The notes: a model not told the origin generated them from the sequence alone. Shown: positions 8,860-48,755, counted from the stretch's first letter. The stretch: 51,013 nt of DNA from a virus (IMGVR_UViG_2548876959_000011); one strand, 5' to 3'. Program-made: numbers and translations.

Positions 8860-9450
<591 letters not shown>

Positions 9451-9579
9451 TTAACCGATTCTACGAGTAGTCATTTGTTCATTGAGTAGGAATATTGTTG
9501 TCTGGGGGGTAATCAGTGTAGGTGGAATGAGGGATATGATATGGTTATCACATAATCAGGTTGTTTTGAGTAAAACAAT

Positions 9580-9608
9580 AAAACGCCCTTTAATGGGCGT
9601 TTTTTTAA
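9580..9608. terminator. bidirectional rho-independent terminator
   Basis: Stem aacgccc/gggcgtt with 6-nt loop, A-run upstream and T-run downstream. Confidence 0.6.
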
Positions 9609-9635
9609 AACTTAAATTGACTATCCTTTCAAATA

Positions 9636-10448
9636 CTATTTTAATTCTATGTAATTTTTAAATTCTCCCTCATATTTATACATGATGCTATCAAATCCTT
9701 CCATTACATCAACGAATTGTTGTGAACATTCCGGCTTCCAAGGCGTACACTTACGAACCATATCCATTTTTTTCTTATCCTTCGTTGTATCGACTAAGGA
9801 TAGGTACCCTATAAAATTCATCATCTGAACAGGATCTTGATTTGTGAATATATATTTGACGTTTTGCTTAGTAGGCGAAAAAGAATCAAAAGCAGGGAAC
9901 ATATATTCACCAGAAAAAGAGAGTGCAGCATCAATGACGTCTGTTGCAGGAGTGCAGTTGCTCAGAATTGGCACTAAGCTAAAATTAGCACCTGAGCACA
10001 CTGCATATATATCATCCCCTTTTTTTAGTTTTAACAGAGAGTCTTGCTTTGAATCCAATATTTTCAATTTGATATAATTTAGTGGCGTTGCATTTTCCCC
10101 TGGAGTAAATAACTCTACAATTGGTTTATTATTCACCATTTTTATGGATTTTATTTCACCATACACAATTGGAATTGTGTTCCATTTTTCCTGAGCAGCA
10201 AATTCATTATCTTTAAAATCATTAACCAACTCAGATGGCAAATGATAACCAAATTGATTGTTCATTGCTTTCGAAGCAAATCCAGACAAATAGAATGCCC
10301 TTACTAAATCATAATCTTTCTTTGAGGTAGAAAGCCAATCTGGCAATTTATTATCAGCTATCGCGCTTCCAGCAAAAATAGCACAACAAAATGTTATTAC
10401 ATTAAATAATTTCATTTTCCATTCACTCATTAATCGGTTTAAACTCAC
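9636..10448 (-). CDS. secreted protein, SimC-like (superinfection exclusion) by position and size
   Basis: 270-aa ORF; signal-peptide-like segment MKLFNVITFCCAIFAGSAIA (likely true start at Met12, about 10415); AT-rich coding sequence. Confidence 0.5.
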   Translation of the reverse strand: MSLNRLMSEWKMKLFNVITFCCAIFAGSAIADNKLPDWLSTSKKDYDLVRAFYLSGFASKAMNNQFGYHLPSELVNDFKDNEFAAQEKWNTIPIVYGEIKSIKMVNNKPIVELFTPGENATPLNYIKLKILDSKQDSLLKLKKGDDIYAVCSGANFSLVPILSNCTPATDVIDAALSFSGEYMFPAFDSFSPTKQNVKYIFTNQDPVQMMNFIGYLSLVDTTKDKKKMDMVRKCTPWKPECSQQFVDVMEGFDSIMYKYEGEFKNYIELK

Positions 10449-10758
10449 TAATTAATTCACCAAGACTATTTGGGTATGCTTTATAAATAACATACTCCGA
10501 AGAGCCATCTGAATATTGGTAAGCCCCATAACAGATCAGTTTATTTATTCCTTTCTGAATAGTTTTTTGATTATAAGAATCAACCACTGTTATTCCATAT
10601 GACGATAATATTTCGTTATATTCTTCAATAAGAGCTTTTCTTGTTTCCACTGAATTACAATCTACCTTCGAAAAGTCAACTTCATCAGCAAAAACATTAA
10701 ATGTTAAAAAGGAAAGCACTAAAAACAAACGAATCAGCATAAATCCACTCCTACGCAT
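10423..10758 (-). CDS. small secreted protein (sim-like locus)
   Basis: 111-aa ORF with N-terminal signal peptide MLIRLFLVLSFLTFNVFA; AT-rich. Confidence 0.5.
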   Translation of the reverse strand: MRRSGFMLIRLFLVLSFLTFNVFADEVDFSKVDCNSVETRKALIEEYNEILSSYGITVVDSYNQKTIQKGINKLICYGAYQYSDGSSEYVIYKAYPNSLGELISEFKPINE

Positions 10759-10761
10759 GGA

Positions 10762-10893
10762 TTAATAGTCATTGATCGCAAAGGCGTAAACTTGCCAAAG
10801 GTATTTCGTATAATCGGTACAAATCTCCTTTACGCTTGATGCTGCATTAACAGTCCCAGCCATAAATAATAACGATAGTAATAGTTTTCTCAT
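10762..10893 (-). CDS. small secreted peptide (43 aa)
   Basis: Hand-translated: MRKLLLSLLFMAGTVNAASSVKEICTDYTKYLWQVYAFAINDY; RBS-like AGGTGAGG upstream; below ORF-track size cutoff. Confidence 0.35.
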   Translation of the reverse strand: MRKLLLSLLFMAGTVNAASSVKEICTDYTKYLWQVYAFAINDY

Positions 10894-10989
10894 TATAACC
10901 TCACCTGCCTTATAACCCATTTAGGGTACATATTTTCGCCTTTAAAAAAAAGAGGTTATTAGATCCAATTGTGTATTTATTAAGTAGAT

Positions 10990-11006
10990 AATGCTCTAAT
11001 AAATTT
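10990..11006 (+). promoter_or_regulatory. C1 operator-like site upstream of immI (Op51-like)
   Basis: AATGCTCTAATAAATTT, 16/17 match to ATTGCTCTAATAAATTT. Confidence 0.7.
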
Positions 11007-11189
11007 GTATTTTTAAGTCACGAATGCTATCTTTTCGCATCATATTGACCTTTTAATCGTTCAGGCTTATAGTTCCGCCGTCGTAGCAAATTCTGCGACC
11101 GGGTTTAGCAGCCTGAATGATTGTGCGGACAGCCGCAGATATCCGATATTGCGGTATTTTTGTGTCCGTAAAACCGCGTTACGCCCAAA

Positions 11190-11285
11190 TTATGGTGGGG
11201 CGTGATGGGGAGGCTTCGGCCTGCTGGTTTCACAATCGCCAGTCTGCTAACCCCGTCACGTCCTGCCACCTGTTTAGCAGCGGGT
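11190..11285 (+). ncRNA. c4: c4-like antisense repressor RNA region (approximate bounds)
   Basis: Structured leader upstream of icd/ant; tcacaatc (11232-11239) is complementary to gattgtga just upstream of the icd start; UUCG-looped hairpin and 7-bp stem ctgctaa/ttagcag. Confidence 0.35.
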
Positions 11286-11320
11286 AGCAGGTTGTTAAAC
11301 CTGATTGTGAGGCCGTAACT

Positions 11321-11542
11321 ATGGTTAATGCCAATCCTTGCGCACGCCCAGAATTCATCTGGCGTTTCTATTCCTGTAAAAAACACCACTATCACTTCGT
11401 TATCGCAGCAACTGAAGACGAAGCACGCTCTCAATTGCCTGATGGCCCCTGCATTTTTACTGCCCGTTTTTCAACTAACTCGCGCAATTCACTTAGTTAC
11501 TGGAGCCTCCCCTTCTCTGCCGACGTTCAGGGGGGTTTATGA
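11321..11542 (+). CDS. icd: Icd-like cell division inhibitor
   Basis: 73-aa ORF whose stop overlaps the ant start (ATGA); position between c4 region and ant. Confidence 0.65.
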   Translation: MVNANPCARPEFIWRFYSCKKHHYHFVIAATEDEARSQLPDGPCIFTARFSTNSRNSLSYWSLPFSADVQGGL

Positions 11543-12582
11543 AAAAACCTCTCGTCACCCGTAATGACATAGCCGAAGCGATCGCCCTGCATACTGCCTG
11601 TATACCGACACGGGAGATCCCCGGCGCAATTGCCAACTATTTCATGATAACCAGGCGTTTTTATACCCGAACAGATAAGGCTGTGATCAACAGGCTACTG
11701 ATAGCCGAGATCAGGGATTATTTGATTGAACAAGGACGTCTACGTTACGCAACGGTGGCAGCAGAAATGAGAAAGGAGGCACATAGAATGACCAGTAATA
11801 ATTTGAATGTTAAAAAACCAGCACCTGTTGCTTCAGCAACGCCAGCACCAGCCGTGAATGTCATCCCCACCACCGGAGACACAATCGACAGCCTGACACT
11901 GTTAAAGATGGTCAATGAAGCGCGTAAGTTATGTGGGGAACCAGAGGTTCGGAACAACAAATTCATCGAAAAAATACTCGACGAATTAGAAGGTGAGGAC
12001 GGTTACACAAAAAGTGCAACCGTGCCGCCAGGTGGCGGTACGCCTATGGTTGTCATAACCATGACCTACAAACAAGCCCTGCGAGTCGCCGCGCGCGAAT
12101 CGAAAGCGGTCCGCCGTTCGCTGATCGACAAACTGGAAGAATTGCAGCAGGCAAACTCCCCTACCCCATCGATCCCCCAAACATTACCAGAAGCCCTACG
12201 CCTGGCTGCCGAGTTGGCAGAACAGAAATTGCAGCTGGAACAACAGCTGGTGGCCGCAGCCCCTAAAGTCGATTTTGCCGACCGGGTATCAGTGGCTAAT
12301 GGAATCCTGATCGGGAACTTTGCAAAGGTCGTTGGACTTAAGCAAAACGCCCTTTTCTCATGGTTGCGCCAGAACGGCATTCTCATGGCTTTTGGTGCGC
12401 GCAAAAACGTACCGAGCCAGCAGTACATTAACGCCGGGTATTTCACGGTGAAAGAAGTGGTGCTGGATGATGAAAATGGCTACCAGATACGGCTGACGCC
12501 CCAATTAACGGGTAAAGGCCAGCAGTGGTTAACTCGCAAGCTACTTGATGCTGGTTTGTTAAAACCAGTAGCAATAGGTTAA
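11539..12582 (+). CDS. ant1: antirepressor Ant1
   Basis: 347-aa ORF; C-terminal domain shared with the KilA-like ORF (LPEALRLAA..LAEQK...GKGQQWL..LLDAG); immI context. Confidence 0.8.
   Translation: MKKPLVTRNDIAEAIALHTACIPTREIPGAIANYFMITRRFYTRTDKAVINRLLIAEIRDYLIEQGRLRYATVAAEMRKEAHRMTSNNLNVKKPAPVASATPAPAVNVIPTTGDTIDSLTLLKMVNEARKLCGEPEVRNNKFIEKILDELEGEDGYTKSATVPPGGGTPMVVITMTYKQALRVAARESKAVRRSLIDKLEELQQANSPTPSIPQTLPEALRLAAELAEQKLQLEQQLVAAAPKVDFADRVSVANGILIGNFAKVVGLKQNALFSWLRQNGILMAFGARKNVPSQQYINAGYFTVKEVVLDDENGYQIRLTPQLTGKGQQWLTRKLLDAGLLKPVAIG
11788..12582 (+). CDS. ant2: Ant2, nested in-frame product of ant
   Basis: In-frame ATG at 11788 preceded by strong SD AAAGGAGG (11772-11779, 8-nt spacing); would give a 264-aa product. 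Confidence 0.5.
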   Translation: MTSNNLNVKKPAPVASATPAPAVNVIPTTGDTIDSLTLLKMVNEARKLCGEPEVRNNKFIEKILDELEGEDGYTKSATVPPGGGTPMVVITMTYKQALRVAARESKAVRRSLIDKLEELQQANSPTPSIPQTLPEALRLAAELAEQKLQLEQQLVAAAPKVDFADRVSVANGILIGNFAKVVGLKQNALFSWLRQNGILMAFGARKNVPSQQYINAGYFTVKEVVLDDENGYQIRLTPQLTGKGQQWLTRKLLDAGLLKPVAIG

Positions 12583-12745: not shown

Positions 12746-13546
12746 ATGCAACAAACATTCAATGCGGATATGAATATATCAAACCTTCATCAAAATGTCG
12801 ATCCTTCAACCACTCTGCCTGTTATTTGTGGTGTTGAAATTACGACCGACCGCGCTGGCCGTTACAACCTTAATGCTCTACACAGAGCGAGCGGACTCGG
12901 TGCCCATAAAGCGCCAGCTCAATGGCTAAGAACGCTGTCAGCCAAACAGCTCATCGAAGAGCTTGAAAAAGAAACTATGCAGAATTGCATAGTTTCGTTC
13001 GAAGGCCGTGGCGGCGGCACTTTTGCCCATGAATTGCTCGCTGTGGAGTACGCAGGCTGGATTTCTCCCGCGTTTCGGCTGAAGGTAAACCAGACATTTA
13101 TCGACTATCGAGCCGGAAGATTACAACCTGCTATTCCGCAGAGTCTCCCTGAAGCTCTCCGTTTGGCTGCCGACCTGGCAGAGCAAAAGCAACGGCTGGA
13201 GCAAAAAATGCTTATGGATGCACCTAAAGTCGAATTCGCCGAACGCGTTGCTACCGCCAGCGGGGTTCTAATCGGCAACTATGCCAAAGTGCTCGGTCTG
13301 GGCCAAAACTATCTCTTCACCTGGTTGCGTGATAACGGAATTCTGATCGCAACCGGTGAACGCAGGAACGTCCCCAAACAAGAATACATATCCCGTGGGT
13401 ATTTCACCCTTAAAGAAACCGTGATCGATACAAGCAATGGAAGCAGGATTTCTTTCACGACTCGTATAACCGGCAAAGGTCAGCAGTGGCTGATGAAGCG
13501 ATTGCTTGATGCTGGTGTGCTGGTACCTGTCGCGGCAACGCGCTAA
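12746..13546 (+). CDS. kilA: KilA (KilA-N domain plus antirepressor-like C-terminal domain)
   Basis: 266-aa ORF; KilA-N-like N-terminus (GRYNLNALHRASG); C-terminal domain paralogous to Ant. Confidence 0.75.
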   Translation: MQQTFNADMNISNLHQNVDPSTTLPVICGVEITTDRAGRYNLNALHRASGLGAHKAPAQWLRTLSAKQLIEELEKETMQNCIVSFEGRGGGTFAHELLAVEYAGWISPAFRLKVNQTFIDYRAGRLQPAIPQSLPEALRLAADLAEQKQRLEQKMLMDAPKVEFAERVATASGVLIGNYAKVLGLGQNYLFTWLRDNGILIATGERRNVPKQEYISRGYFTLKETVIDTSNGSRISFTTRITGKGQQWLMKRLLDAGVLVPVAATR

Positions 13547-14717: not shown

Positions 14718-14794
14718 TACAATCGTTGCGGGTGCTTGAGGCTATCTGCTTCAGGCATTACCCGAAAAGCAGATAGAAGAAAGCCCCAGATAAC

Positions 14795-14865
14795 ATTACG
14801 CGTCCTGCAAGACGCTTAACATTAATCTGAGGCAATATCTATGCTTAGCATACGTAGATTAGCCT
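14795..14865 (-). ncRNA. sok: putative Sok-like antisense RNA (approximate)
   Basis: Inferred from hok/mok architecture; reverse-strand TTGACC -35-like element near 14866-14871 and hairpin gcgtc/gacgc at 14800-14815. Confidence 0.3.
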
Positions 14866-15047
14866 CTTACCGACCAAAAGGTCAAGGAGAAGCAGGCTAT
14901 GAAGCAGCAAAAAGCGATATTAATCGCTCTGATCGTCATCTGTTTAACCGTCATTGTGACGGCACTGGTAACGAGGAAAGACCTCTGCGAGGTACGAATC
15001 CGAACCGGCCAGACGGAGGTCACTGTCTTCACAGCCTACGAATCTGA
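14841..15047 (+). CDS. mok: Mok-like reading frame overlapping hok
   Basis: 68-aa ORF in a different frame, starting upstream of hok and ending near the hok stop, as in hok/mok/sok loci. Confidence 0.5.
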   Translation: MLSIRRLASYRPKGQGEAGYEAAKSDINRSDRHLFNRHCDGTGNEERPLRGTNPNRPDGGHCLHSLRI

Positions 15048-15054
15048 AAGGTAA
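14899..15054 (+). CDS. hok: Hok/Gef-family type I toxin (51 aa)
   Basis: Hand-translated: MKQQKAILIALIVICLTVIVTALVTRKDLCEVRIRTGQTEVTVFTAYESER, near-identical to the HokD/Gef family as recalled; AGGAGA RBS; below ORF-track cutoff. Confidence 0.85.
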   Translation: MKQQKAILIALIVICLTVIVTALVTRKDLCEVRIRTGQTEVTVFTAYESER

Positions 15055-46402: not shown

Positions 46403-47131
46403 ATGAAAGGCGAAGTGAAAGAGCGCGGCATGATTTTCAACGATGAGATGGTCCGGGCCATCCTCGAAGGAAGGAAAACGCAGACGCGGCGGATAATGAA
46501 AAATCAGCCTGCGGAAGTTGGTCCAGAAGCACCAGTGATGGTTAGAAAAATTGGTGCAGGTTTTCAGTGGTACGGGGCTGATGGTGTAAGCAGTGTTTTC
46601 AATTGCCCATTTGGTATCGTCGGCGATCGAATTTGGGTTCGTGAAACATGGGCGATATTAGGCAATGAGGATGGTTGCAGTGTGGACTGGAACGACAACC
46701 TTTGTCGTGGCGATGAGAAGAACGCAGCAAGGATTTATCGGGCCAGTTGCGAGCAAAAACCTGGTGATTACGGCTTATGGTCGATACCCGATGATGCCGA
46801 CTGGAAACCTCACACTGTGAATGAAAAGTTTGATGGTGGGTGGCGTCCATCAATTCACATGCCGCGATGGGCATCACGCATTCTGTTGGAAATTACCAAC
46901 GTGCGCGTTGAACGGTTGAACGATATCAGCGAATGCGATGCAAGGGCTGAGGGCGTTCCGCCTGCTGGAAGTTTGCTTCCTGATCACCCGGGAACATTCC
47001 TTACTCCCAAGGGGGATTTCGCAATGGCCAAGGTTGCGTTCCAGCGCCTATGGGAATCCATCTATGGTGAAGAAAGCTGGAACGCTAATCCCTGGGTGTG
47101 GGTAATCGAGTTTAAGCGCATTCAGGAATAA
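46403..47131 (+). CDS. hypothetical protein, possibly ASCH-like
   Basis: 242-aa ORF; N-terminal MIFNDEMVRAILEGRKTQTRR. Confidence 0.45.
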   Translation: MKGEVKERGMIFNDEMVRAILEGRKTQTRRIMKNQPAEVGPEAPVMVRKIGAGFQWYGADGVSSVFNCPFGIVGDRIWVRETWAILGNEDGCSVDWNDNLCRGDEKNAARIYRASCEQKPGDYGLWSIPDDADWKPHTVNEKFDGGWRPSIHMPRWASRILLEITNVRVERLNDISECDARAEGVPPAGSLLPDHPGTFLTPKGDFAMAKVAFQRLWESIYGEESWNANPWVWVIEFKRIQE

Positions 47132-47214
47132 ACCGTGAGTATGCATCAAATCGTCAGTTTTTCAGGTGGACGAGCATCGGCCTGTCTCGTTCATCTGTTC
47201 GAAGAGGTAGTGGC

Positions 47215-47418
47215 ATGACAATCGTAAAAACCCATACCGGCACCGTGATCACCAAAGACGGGCCGCAGGTAAAAAAACTGCACCAAACAGAGCGGATGTG
47301 GGTCGTCGGCAAAAATGAGTTTTACCACAAAGATACCGGACGCCGCCACTTTGCAGAAAATACGCGCCGTCGACTGCTGTTAGACACCATCAAGCCTATC
47401 GAGGTGAAGCATGTTTAA
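47215..47418 (+). CDS. small hypothetical protein
   Basis: 67-aa ORF. Confidence 0.4.
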   Translation: MTIVKTHTGTVITKDGPQVKKLHQTERMWVVGKNEFYHKDTGRRHFAENTRRRLLLDTIKPIEVKHV

Positions 47419-47650
47419 ACAGAACGAAAAAGCTATCGCTCAAATTGCTGATTATATCCCGCGTGCGTGCCGGGGTATGCAGTTGCAGGAAGCCAAAGCG
47501 CGCCTGGAGAAAAAAATTGCGCTCTATATTGATGACGGCTGTGATGCTGCCGTTCTTAACGCGGCGTTCGCACCAGCTCTTAACAGTCATACTCGGGAGT
47601 CTTTTTTTTCGTGCATCGAAGCGCAACTCCGCAAAGGAGGCAGCCAGTGA
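47411..47650 (+). CDS. small hypothetical protein
   Basis: 79-aa ORF ending ...LRKGGSQ, overlapping the next start. Confidence 0.4.
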   Translation: MFKQNEKAIAQIADYIPRACRGMQLQEAKARLEKKIALYIDDGCDAAVLNAAFAPALNSHTRESFFSCIEAQLRKGGSQ

Positions 47651-48348
47651 TCGAAATTAATTACCGGGCACTGCGTGAGATAGCAAAACAGGCAACACAG
47701 GGCGAATGGGTCGCATTTATTTCGCCGGGTACTGGTACGTATGCGGTGCATACGCCCGGTGATAAACGATGTGAAGACGTTATCAAATGGACCGGCTTTG
47801 ATGGACTGAAAAACGCAGAGAACAACGCTCGTTATATTGCCGCATTCAACCCAAAGGTTGCACTGGAGCTACTTGGTGAAATTAAGCGCCTGGAGGACAC
47901 AAATATTGATGCTATGTGCCGAATAGCACCGCTTGAGACTAAGCTCGCGGCTCTGGTGGCAGAGAACGCTGGGCTGAAACACGCAATGGCTGTAACTCTT
48001 GATCATGTGTCGGTCACGGATGCAGGGCAGGCCGGAGTTGCTGCAATGATTATCAACGATGCCCTACACCACAGCGAAACTCCAGCTACCGATGCTTTTC
48101 TGGCGGAAATTCGTGCGGAAGCACGCAACGAGGGGATTAACTATACCGCCAGCCGTCTTGCTGCTGCGTTCAATCACGGATTTATCAATACGTCTTTGCG
48201 TGAAGTTTTCGACGTTACGCGCATGATTCTGTCAGCGAAAGAAGAGTTGGCTAATGAACCGTACCCGATTGATGGCCTGTCCGGTGAATATGCGGAGAAA
48301 TCCCTTGAAGAATGGGCGGAACAGATTCGCAAAGGAGCTGACAAGTGA
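47647..48348 (+). CDS. modular coiled-coil protein
   Basis: GTG at 47647 after AAAGGAGG; N-terminal module VIEINYRALRE and ETPATDAFLAE module are shared with downstream ORFs. Confidence 0.5.
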   Translation: MIEINYRALREIAKQATQGEWVAFISPGTGTYAVHTPGDKRCEDVIKWTGFDGLKNAENNARYIAAFNPKVALELLGEIKRLEDTNIDAMCRIAPLETKLAALVAENAGLKHAMAVTLDHVSVTDAGQAGVAAMIINDALHHSETPATDAFLAEIRAEARNEGINYTASRLAAAFNHGFINTSLREVFDVTRMILSAKEELANEPYPIDGLSGEYAEKSLEEWAEQIRKGADK

Positions 48349-48755
48349 AGAAGATGATTTTTGTCGCGGCATTGTTGGTGAATATCCAACAAGTGCATGC
48401 TTCAGCAGCTATTGTAGCCTCTACCGCCGCGACTACGGCTGCTGTAGCTGCTGCGAACTCTGCGAATATCGCAAACCAACAGGCACAGCGTGCTGCTAAT
48501 GCATCAGCCAGCGTTCACCCAATCACCATTAAGAGCAGTAAGCAAAATCTGGGATTCATAACGTGCGGCACGCGTTCTAATGAAGCTGTAGGCTCTCTGG
48601 GATGTACGGTATATGGCGATAGTGAGCGCAGAGAAATTCCATGGAAAACGTGGCCCGGATACGTTCTCGGATCGAAGCTCCCTGCCAGCTACGAAGTAAA
48701 TGCCGTATCGTTTGATCACTATAACGGCGTGGCAACTGTCTATTTTACATACTGA
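48345..48755 (+). CDS. secreted protein
   Basis: 136-aa ORF; signal peptide MKKMIFVAALLVNIQQVHASAA. Confidence 0.5.
   Translation: MKKMIFVAALLVNIQQVHASAAIVASTAATTAAVAAANSANIANQQAQRAANASASVHPITIKSSKQNLGFITCGTRSNEAVGSLGCTVYGDSERREIPWKTWPGYVLGSKLPASYEVNAVSFDHYNGVATVYFTY

Follow-up and report, generated by a model that had tools for sequence, protein, structure and literature searches.

The sim locus of a P1-like phage-plasmid: gene starts, a predicted OB fold in SimC, a putative simA remnant and the joints of a cassette slot

Results and Discussion

The three minus-strand genes analysed in this work are identified as the simABC operon of a P1-like phage-plasmid, which is a prophage-expressed superinfection-exclusion ('superimmunity') module. 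We put the probability of this identification at about 0.93. The genes are located in a stretch of viral DNA of 51,013 nucleotides (IMGVR_UViG_2548876959_000011), which is referred to as the window. The sim locus is already known and the copy in the window is an ordinary one. This work contributes small additions and no discovery, namely the assignment of a predicted OB fold to SimC, the putative stub nature of simA, corrections of the start codons and the precise location of the joints that bound the slot occupied by the genes. The periplasmic location of the products and their role in exclusion rest on the published work on P1.

Identity and position of the locus

The interval 9400-11200 of the window was compared with phage records using megablast. 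The interval exhibits 98.2% DNA identity at 100% coverage (1801 nt) to positions 46550-48349 of phage P1 (AF234172/NC_005856), and 97.4% identity to M34382, which is the original 'sim region' entry. In the matching interval of the P1 record, simC is annotated as 'superimmunity' while simB and simA are annotated as 'putative superimmunity accessory function'. The window resembles P1 (simC/simB/simA at 46786-48070 of AF234172; ORF1 and ORF2 of M34382) in the genes, their order, their strand, their flanks and their low G+C. Unlike in P1, the sim of the window is an allele carried by a mosaic P1-like phage-plasmid.

The sim block lies between the tail operon (sit-pmgB-tub-pmgC, with the late promoter LPsit) and immI (Oc4, C4 RNA, icd, and ant), and the sim genes are transcribed away from immI. 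The P1 record has the same map position, with pmgC and LPsit as the bounds on one side and Oc4, the c4 promoters, C4 RNA, icd, and ant1/2 as the bounds on the other side. The C4 RNA (11188-11273) and the a1b1 target element (11067-11119) were also identified with Rfam, independently of the P1 annotation. The preliminary description of this DNA had stated that the position matches P1 sim, had proposed a candidate periplasmic superinfection-exclusion module, and had left the relatedness to P1 SimA, SimB, and SimC to a search. The flanks agree with the stated position, and the protein comparison confirms the relatedness. The products are identical to their P1 counterparts at 48 of 52 residues (SimA), 109 of 111 residues (SimB), and 262 of 264 residues (SimC), which indicates orthology for all three. 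In addition, simA has the same coordinates relative to simB as in P1, and simB is adjacent to simC on its upstream side.

The rest of the window is also P1-like. The first 25 kb exhibit 97.9% identity over 97% of their length and the next 25 kb exhibit 98.7% identity over 88%. Copies of the sim stretch that are 99.8-99.9% identical were found in PLSDB on non-mobilisable plasmids of 85-102 kb from E. coli, E. albertii, and Klebsiella. We therefore consider that the window originates from a P1-like phage-plasmid.

The sim genes are labelled 'hypothetical protein' on those PLSDB plasmids. The search of PADLOC-DB with all three proteins gave zero matches at E values up to 1. The sole match among the NCBIfam models covered 34 residues of SimB below the threshold and was rejected. 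The label is thus explained by the lack of a PADLOC or NCBIfam model that covers the Sim proteins. It concerns hundreds of P1-like plasmids, some of which carry mcr-1 or blaCTX-M.

Open reading frames, base composition and signal peptides

The minus-strand open reading frames (ORFs) of the block are 9636..10448 (270 aa, starting with GTG), 10423..10758 (111 aa), and 10762..10920 (52 aa). A 43-aa form of simA is obtained from the frame of the 52-aa ORF when the internal ATG at 10893 is used. The G+C content is 0.335 for simC, 0.312 for simB, 0.365 for simA, and 0.335 for the whole block (9427-11100), compared with the mean of 0.477 for the window, 0.474 for pmgC, and 0.501 for ant1. The lowest-G+C stretch of 1285 bp in the whole window begins at 9751, where the G+C content is 0.326, which is about 4.9 standard deviations under the mean of such stretches.

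All three N-termini exhibit an n-region with K/R followed by an uncharged hydrophobic core in which the Kyte-Doolittle mean over 10 residues is 2.4-2.7, as judged by a heuristic. These regions are followed by cleavage motifs of the AxA type, which are GTVNA/ASSV in SimA, FNVFA/DEVD in SimB, and GSAIA/DNKL in SimC (the slash denotes the predicted cleavage site). A crude rule detects signal-peptide-like N-termini in 10 of the 221 ORFs of at least 40 aa in the window, and three of these are the adjacent sim genes. The sequence heuristics detected no lipobox and no second membrane-spanning segment in SimA, SimB, and SimC. The designation of the Sim products as lipoproteins was rejected because of the missing lipobox.

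These findings can be compared with the preliminary description, which had reported three consecutive minus-strand ORFs of 43, 111, and 270 aa, each starting with a signal peptide, in a block far more AT-rich than its flanks. The ORF list contains the three consecutive ORFs, the block has 33.5% G+C compared with 47.7% for the window, and the rule-of-thumb n-, h-, and c-regions with their AxA motifs are consistent with a signal peptide in each product. The lengths are retained in part. The length of 43 aa is favoured over the 52 aa of GenBank. The lengths of 270 and 111 aa are those of the mechanical longest ORFs and are replaced by 259 and 105 aa, which are favoured by the starts of the homologues and the positions of the Shine-Dalgarno sequences.

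Transcription signals

An intrinsic-terminator-like hairpin (AAAACGCCC-ATTAAA-GGGCGTTTT and then a run of T) was identified on the minus strand at 9580..9603, at a distance of 33 nt downstream from the stop codon of simC. By consensus match, no other terminator-like site occurs in 9300-11300, and the hairpin would close the sim transcription unit before LPsit. The tail operon has its late promoter, LPsit, at 9458..9476 on the minus strand, as mapped by annotation transfer through global alignment, and the sequence is identical to that of P1 at 19 of 19 positions.

PsimA, the predicted sigma-70 promoter of the P1 record, corresponds to 10958..10984 on the minus strand, where the window differs from P1 at 10969 and 10984. 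PsimB, another predicted promoter of the P1 record, corresponds to 10892-10920 by annotation transfer. The only site that the consensus promoter scan detected near these predicted promoters is a weak one at 10893..10866. The scan of 9300-11300 detected five sites compared with 8.1 in shuffled sequence, and since there are fewer sites than in shuffled sequence, the scan speaks neither for nor against the predictions of PsimA and PsimB.

SimC and its predicted fold

The simC gene is assigned to 9636..10415 on the minus strand. It encodes the precursor of the superinfection-exclusion protein, which likely has 259 aa and starts at the ATG at 10415 (MKLFNV...). The other starts are at 10430 in P1-style annotation (264 aa) and at the mechanical GTG at 10448 (270 aa). 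The representative of the commonest SimC cluster, with 777 member sequences, has 259 aa, and homologues that are 83% and 39% identical begin at the equivalent of MKLFNV. The start at 10415 is favoured for these two reasons. SimC matches phrog_14355 with an E value of 1e-190.

The predicted signal peptide of SimC (MKLFNVITFCCAIFAGSAIA/DNK) exhibits textbook n-, h-, and c-regions and a predicted AIA/D cleavage site, as read from the sequence. It is followed by a helix, a predicted OB-fold domain (approximately residues 60-165 when the 264-aa form is numbered), and a C-terminal part that is helical. The mature protein has two cysteine pairs, one inside the OB domain and one in the C-terminal part. 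Both pairs are kept in relatives down to 29-40% identity, which would be anticipated if the exported protein forms disulfides.

The SimC family is small. The word-index homologue search gave four proteins that are all near-identical, and the exhaustive HMMER search gave 15 relatives among 1.84 billion representatives. Merely about three of these 15 relatives are full length, so the alignment for structure prediction is shallow. The AlphaFold (AF2) model that was built on an alignment of nine sequences has a mean pLDDT of 60. The pLDDT is 70-83 for a five-stranded barrel formed by approximately residues 60-165, and below 65 in the C-terminal half, which is too low for conclusions on the C-terminal domain.

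The barrel coincides with a match of SimC to the Pfam family PF12869 (tRNA_anti-like) at residues 67-159, with an E value of 1.1e-3 and a score of 19.0 bits that is below the gathering cut-off of 23.5. PF12869 also matches five of the nine aligned SimC relatives, with E values down to 2e-14. SimC thus appears to share the fold of a solved structure and to be linked to that family through intermediate sequences. The solved structure of PF12869, 3f1z, is a 'putative nucleic acid-binding lipoprotein' of Klebsiella. SimC differs from the PF12869 proteins in having a predicted type I signal peptide instead of a lipobox, and in having an extra helical C-terminal domain of approximately 100 residues with its own cysteine pair. 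The search of PDB sequences with the SimC profile gave no meaningful match. The top matches of the model among viral models (BFVD) with Foldseek are phage proteins that bear the names tRNA_anti-like, nucleic-acid-binding lipoprotein and, in one case, 'host cell surface-exposed lipoprotein'. The last name is presumably the one by which Pfam designates the Ltp family. The OB-fold assignment offers a concrete handle on the mechanism of Sim, with a domain to mutate and partners to test.

SimB

The simB gene is assigned to 10423..10740 on the minus strand and encodes a small exported protein of likely 105 aa, with its ATG at 10740 and an AGGAG sequence 7 nt upstream. The GenBank-style simB has 111 aa and starts at the ATG at 10758, which is without a Shine-Dalgarno sequence. 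SimB matches phrog_14329 (E value of 3e-70), where the profile of 105 positions aligns to residues 7-111, and the homologues have 105-108 aa and start with MLIRLF. The profile, the homologue starts, and the AGGAG sequence together favour the start at 10740. The gene overlaps or abuts simC.

SimB has a signal peptide as predicted by a heuristic (MLIRLFLVLSFLTFNVFA/DEVD), and two conserved cysteines. The word-index search gave ten proteins, which are near-identical only, and the AlphaFold model based on the near-identical alignment has a pLDDT of 50 and is unusable. A sub-threshold Pfam match to TcpS was rejected because the match falls on the signal peptide. SimB is found beside SimC in four of the four SimC-bearing loci that were examined, which are those of P1, the window, the metagenomic contig L004, and the diverged P1-like contig L005. 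SimB may be a conserved exported partner of SimC.

simA as a putative stub

The simA gene is assigned to 10762..10893 on the minus strand. It encodes 43 aa, which comprise a predicted signal peptide and approximately 17 further residues. The ATG at 10893 is preceded by GGTGAGG, and all of the long homologues start there, so the 43-aa form is preferred over the GenBank form of 52 aa that starts at 10920.

Residues 10-50 of the GenBank-style SimA are co-linear with residues 1-41 of proteins that are much longer. The identities are 85% to gp35 of Ro157c2YLVW (215 aa), 88% to L004_1921 of contig L004 (215 aa), and 64% to L005_4059 of contig L005 (179 aa). SimA likewise matches positions 1-41 of the 213 positions of the phrog_3933 profile. 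The DNA alignment exhibits a TAA stop in P1 and the window at the position where the long simA gene has GAA. The ATG annotated for simB aligns with a Met codon inside the long simA gene, and the similarity ends a few bases beyond it. The gene for P1-type simA would thus be the 5' remnant of a gene for a secreted protein of 180-215 aa, which may have been formed by internal deletion or by cassette exchange.

In contig L005 the genes run from long SimA (179 aa) through SimB (60% identical) and SimC (40% identical) to pmgC, tub, pmgB, and sit, and a region resembling immI lies upstream. A three-gene module with a full-length simA therefore exists, and the full-length first gene is probably the older state. 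The tblastn search with the long form matched 267 plasmid records. At least 80% of the protein is matched in 84 of these, and in most of the remaining records the match is limited to approximately residues 1-48. The long form is named 'simA domain protein' in one Salmonella record.

All four nucleotide differences between the window and P1 in simA change the amino acid, compared with two of the seven in simC. These numbers are small and fit relaxed constraint on simA. The recognition of simA as a stub, together with the three start corrections, would improve the annotation of the locus.

A swappable cassette slot between LPsit and Oc4

It has been reported that simC-simB-simA is variable region 4 of P1-like phage-plasmids and is low in G+C (PMC9603915). 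The findings in this work agree with that report: several AT-rich cassettes, among them sim, can take each other's place between joints that are fixed at LPsit and Oc4. On the left side the variable cassette is joined at 9478/9479, as the homology to P7 and Ro157c2YLVW ends at 9478. The homology on the right side resumes at 10992 in P7 and at 10754 in Ro157c2YLVW. The right joint of the variable region is located at Oc4, a C1 operator at 10990..11006 on the plus strand (AATGCTCTAATAAATTT) that is identical to that of P1.

Only 136 of the 623 matching plasmid records in PLSDB carry at least 80% of the sim stretch. The slot in P7, RCS47, and SJ46 holds upf50.0 (DUF5384, with a signal peptide) and upf50.5 (a lipoprotein). 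The slot in Ro157c2YLVW holds gp35, which is the long simA relative, and gp34 of 158 aa, and simB and simC are absent. The 158-aa protein matched no Pfam family at E values up to 0.01 in our own scan, and its 92% identical counterpart in contig L004 has a precomputed match to PF27224 (YfjT). The genes stacked in contig L004 encode a membrane protein of 107 aa, SimB, SimC, the long relative of SimA, and the YfjT-like protein. The alternative cassettes have a low G+C content of 0.36-0.41.

The cassettes of P7, RCS47, and SJ46 and of Ro157c2YLVW are therefore similar to sim in their joints, strand, low G+C of 0.40-0.41, and products with signal peptides or lipoboxes. Their proteins are unrelated to SimB and SimC, whereas gp35 alone is related, being the full-length form of SimA. 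The foreign compositional origin that the preliminary description had suggested is reasonable in view of these low-G+C swappable cassettes. It is supported if it is taken to denote a mosaic accessory cassette, and it had already been published. The joints, which are fixed at LPsit and Oc4, delimit a slot in which cassettes for envelope proteins are swapped. This slot is of use for typing P1-like phage-plasmids and for predicting cross-exclusion between them.

Superinfection exclusion and alternative explanations

The superimmunity phenotype was reportedly defined with multicopy clones by Devlin and co-workers in 1982. Their work and that of Kliem and Dreiseikelmann in 1989 and of Maillou and Dreiseikelmann in 1990 are said to have traced the sim determinant to ORF2, which is now simC, and the processed SimC protein was reportedly purified by Maillou and Dreiseikelmann. 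According to what is reported from the original P1 sim papers, the Sim product is first a precursor, from which processing yields a mature protein that is slightly smaller, and Sim-expressing cells adsorb P1 without productive infection, virulent mutants included. The protection is said to be clearest from multicopy clones and to act at a stage that follows adsorption and precedes the establishment of the DNA in the cytoplasm, and DNA introduced by other routes is reportedly unaffected. The original papers are listed as references in PMC8546580, PMC10695390, PMC6832061, and PMC2409434.

Several phage or prophage envelope proteins block the entry of a genome after adsorption, including Imm and Sp of T4, Ltp of TP-J34, and SieA of P22. 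Sp of T4 inhibits the tail lysozyme and Ltp of the Streptococcus phage TP-J34 targets the tape-measure protein. The mode of action proposed below for SimC is similar to that of these proteins, with no sequence relationship shown between them and SimC. SimC has the look of a soluble periplasmic protein, and not of a membrane protein or a lipoprotein.

We propose that mature SimC would be a soluble periplasmic protein of two domains, with a tRNA_anti-like OB fold as its core and probably stabilised by two disulfides. SimC would most likely act as a binding module that intercepts a periplasmic component delivered by the tail. The candidate targets by analogy are the Sit tape-measure/transglycosylase, the tail-tip complex, or the DNA itself. 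The OB fold gives no word on the ligand, and the choice of target is guided by analogy. Sit, a tape-measure protein with a transglycosylase domain, is encoded three genes away. The channel into the cytoplasm would then never be completed and the entry of DNA would be aborted. SimA in P1-type cassettes would be a truncated relic that mainly supplies a promoter-proximal leader. Two statements are linked in this proposal, namely that SimC excludes P1 by means of a periplasmic tRNA_anti-like OB domain that binds a tail-delivered component or DNA, and that simA is the 5' relic of a gene for a 180-215 aa secreted protein, with the trio of long SimA, SimB, and SimC as the ancestral module. We regard the linked pair as a tentative proposal that may well turn out otherwise. 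If the proposal is true, exported OB-fold proteins of the tRNA_anti-like family in phages and prophages would constitute a broader unrecognised class of entry blockers.

The proposal has to be weighed against other explanations of the same genes. SimA (43-52 aa) and SimB could both be required accessory subunits of SimC in one machine, in keeping with the accessory functions that the P1 record assigns to them, with three genes that are co-oriented and tightly packed or overlapping, and with SimB accompanying SimC in every locus mentioned above. However, the SimA part of this explanation conflicts with the co-linearity to the first 41 residues only of a family of 179-215 aa, with the stop codon in place of GAA, with the four amino-acid-changing differences from P1, and with contig L004, where simB-simC occurs without a stub in front. 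ORF2 alone is also reported to be sim in the work of Maillou and Dreiseikelmann. We consider it rather unlikely that all three proteins form one machine. The ORFs and their 'signal peptides' could also be chance products of AT-rich non-coding DNA, which is rich in codons for Leu, Ile, and Phe, and short ORFs are frequent in the list for the window. However, one strand of the block is filled, sequences of the Shine-Dalgarno type precede two of the three likely starts, and the proteins match protein families with E values down to 1e-190. The homologues are 40-83% identical for SimC and 60-90% identical for SimB with conserved cysteines and length, and a processed SimC protein was reportedly obtained, as mentioned above. 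The chance explanation has a negligible probability and is rejected on the conservation at the protein level.

A further explanation is that the exported proteins belong to a general 'moron' cassette, which in single copy has a role other than the exclusion of P1, and that superimmunity is an effect of over-expression. The role could then be envelope modification, a fitness benefit for the host, or protection against unrelated phages or colicins. The reported use of multicopy clones to define the phenotype would fit this explanation, as would the unrelated exported or lipoprotein cassettes in the slot of other P1-like elements (DUF5384 with a lipoprotein; the YfjT family) and the missing match to any PADLOC defence model. 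It has also been reported from single-cell work that several P1 genomes enter one cell during primary infection (PMC8546580). Little can be concluded from this on lysogens, because the co-infecting genomes of a primary infection arrive before there is any Sim. The strength of exclusion by a single-copy prophage is nevertheless uncertain, given the multicopy-clone phenotype and the entry of multiple genomes. The explanation is opposed by the retention of the SimA, SimB, and SimC trio in the corresponding position of a P1-like element with a SimC of only 40% identity, which fits a phage-specific role, and by Kliem & Dreiseikelmann (1989; as cited in PMC8546580 and PMC6832061), the title of which names sim as the cause of superinfection exclusion. 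We consider the moron explanation improbable and retain the exclusion of P1 by SimC as the preferred reading. The sim genes are dispensable for the lytic growth of P1, as reported from CRISPRi (PMC10695390).

Mosaic surroundings of the locus

The interval from Oc4 to icd (10992-11400) has one mismatch in 409 positions to P7 (99.8% identity). The same interval has approximately 25 mismatches to P1, five of which are in C4 RNA. The element therefore has a sim cassette of the P1 type next to an immI of the P7 type.

A hok/sok module was also identified in the window at 14730-15054 (114 bits for sok in Rfam; E value of 1.3e-21 for Hok/Gef in Pfam). Phage phi456, Ro157c2YLVW, and others contain the whole of the hok/sok stretch, and the reference P1 is not among the full-coverage matches.

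Cassettes in the LPsit-Oc4 slot

In P1-like elements, the slot between LPsit, the late promoter of the tail operon, and the C1 operator Oc4 is occupied by low-GC cassettes that are interchangeable and encode exported proteins or lipoproteins. The slot spans window 9479-10991, L002 380-1755 (the P1-like locus of the P7/RCS47/SJ46 type), L003 380-1421 (the phage Ro157c2YLVW locus), and L004 1-3160 (a metagenomic contig). Four cassettes were identified: sim; upf50.0 (DUF5384) with upf50.5 (lipoprotein); gp35 with a YfjT-like gene; and a stacked form that consists of genes for a 107-aa membrane protein, simB, simC, and the gp35-like and YfjT-like proteins.

The P1-type simA (window 10762-10920) was compared with a family of long secreted proteins of 179-215 aa that is encoded at L003 914-1561, L004 1921-2568, and L005 4059-4598. 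Only the first 41 residues of this family are co-linear with the P1-type simA, and GAA in the long genes corresponds to the TAA stop in the P1-type simA. The diverged P1-like contig L005 retained the trio of long SimA, SimB, and SimC. Among the PLSDB records matched, 84 carry the long form and the majority of the remaining records match the first ~48 residues only.

Two high-scoring, putative ArgR-box-like sequences have been reported in the sim locus of P1 (PMC2409434), at P1 47270 inside simC (~window 10120) and at P1 47906 at the simA/simB junction (~window 10756). The latter coincides exactly with the junction proposed here for the simA truncation.

Junction of sim and immI

The immI segment that consists of Oc4, the c4 promoters, C4 RNA, and the icd start (window 10992-11400) is 99.8% identical to that of P7 (1 mismatch in 409), whereas it differs from P1 at ~25 positions, five of them within C4 RNA. 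Because of this near-identity to P7 and divergence from P1, the element is a combination of the P1-type sim cassette and P7-type immI that are joined at Oc4. This mix may affect both the range of phages excluded and the range covered by immunity.

Other genes in the window

The ORFs of Ant1 (11539-12582, plus strand) and KilA (12746-13546, plus strand) have plainly alike C-terminal halves when their translations are compared by eye. Both exhibit the pattern …PQ(S/T)LPEALRLAA(E/D)LAEQK…GKGQQWL…, which presumably represents the already-known common ANT/KilA C-terminal domain.

A hok/sok toxin-antitoxin module (14730-15054, plus strand), identified by Rfam and Pfam matches, is placed after repL. 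The module consists of sok RNA (14730-14904; Rfam RF01794, 114 bits) and a 51-aa Hok/Gef ORF (14899-15054; Pfam E 1.3e-21). The region that carries it has been reported as variable and is occupied by rlfA-rlfB-pmgF in P1 (PMC9603915). The hok/sok stretch is matched over its entire length by phi456 and Ro157c2YLVW, among others, but reference P1 was absent from the full-coverage matches.
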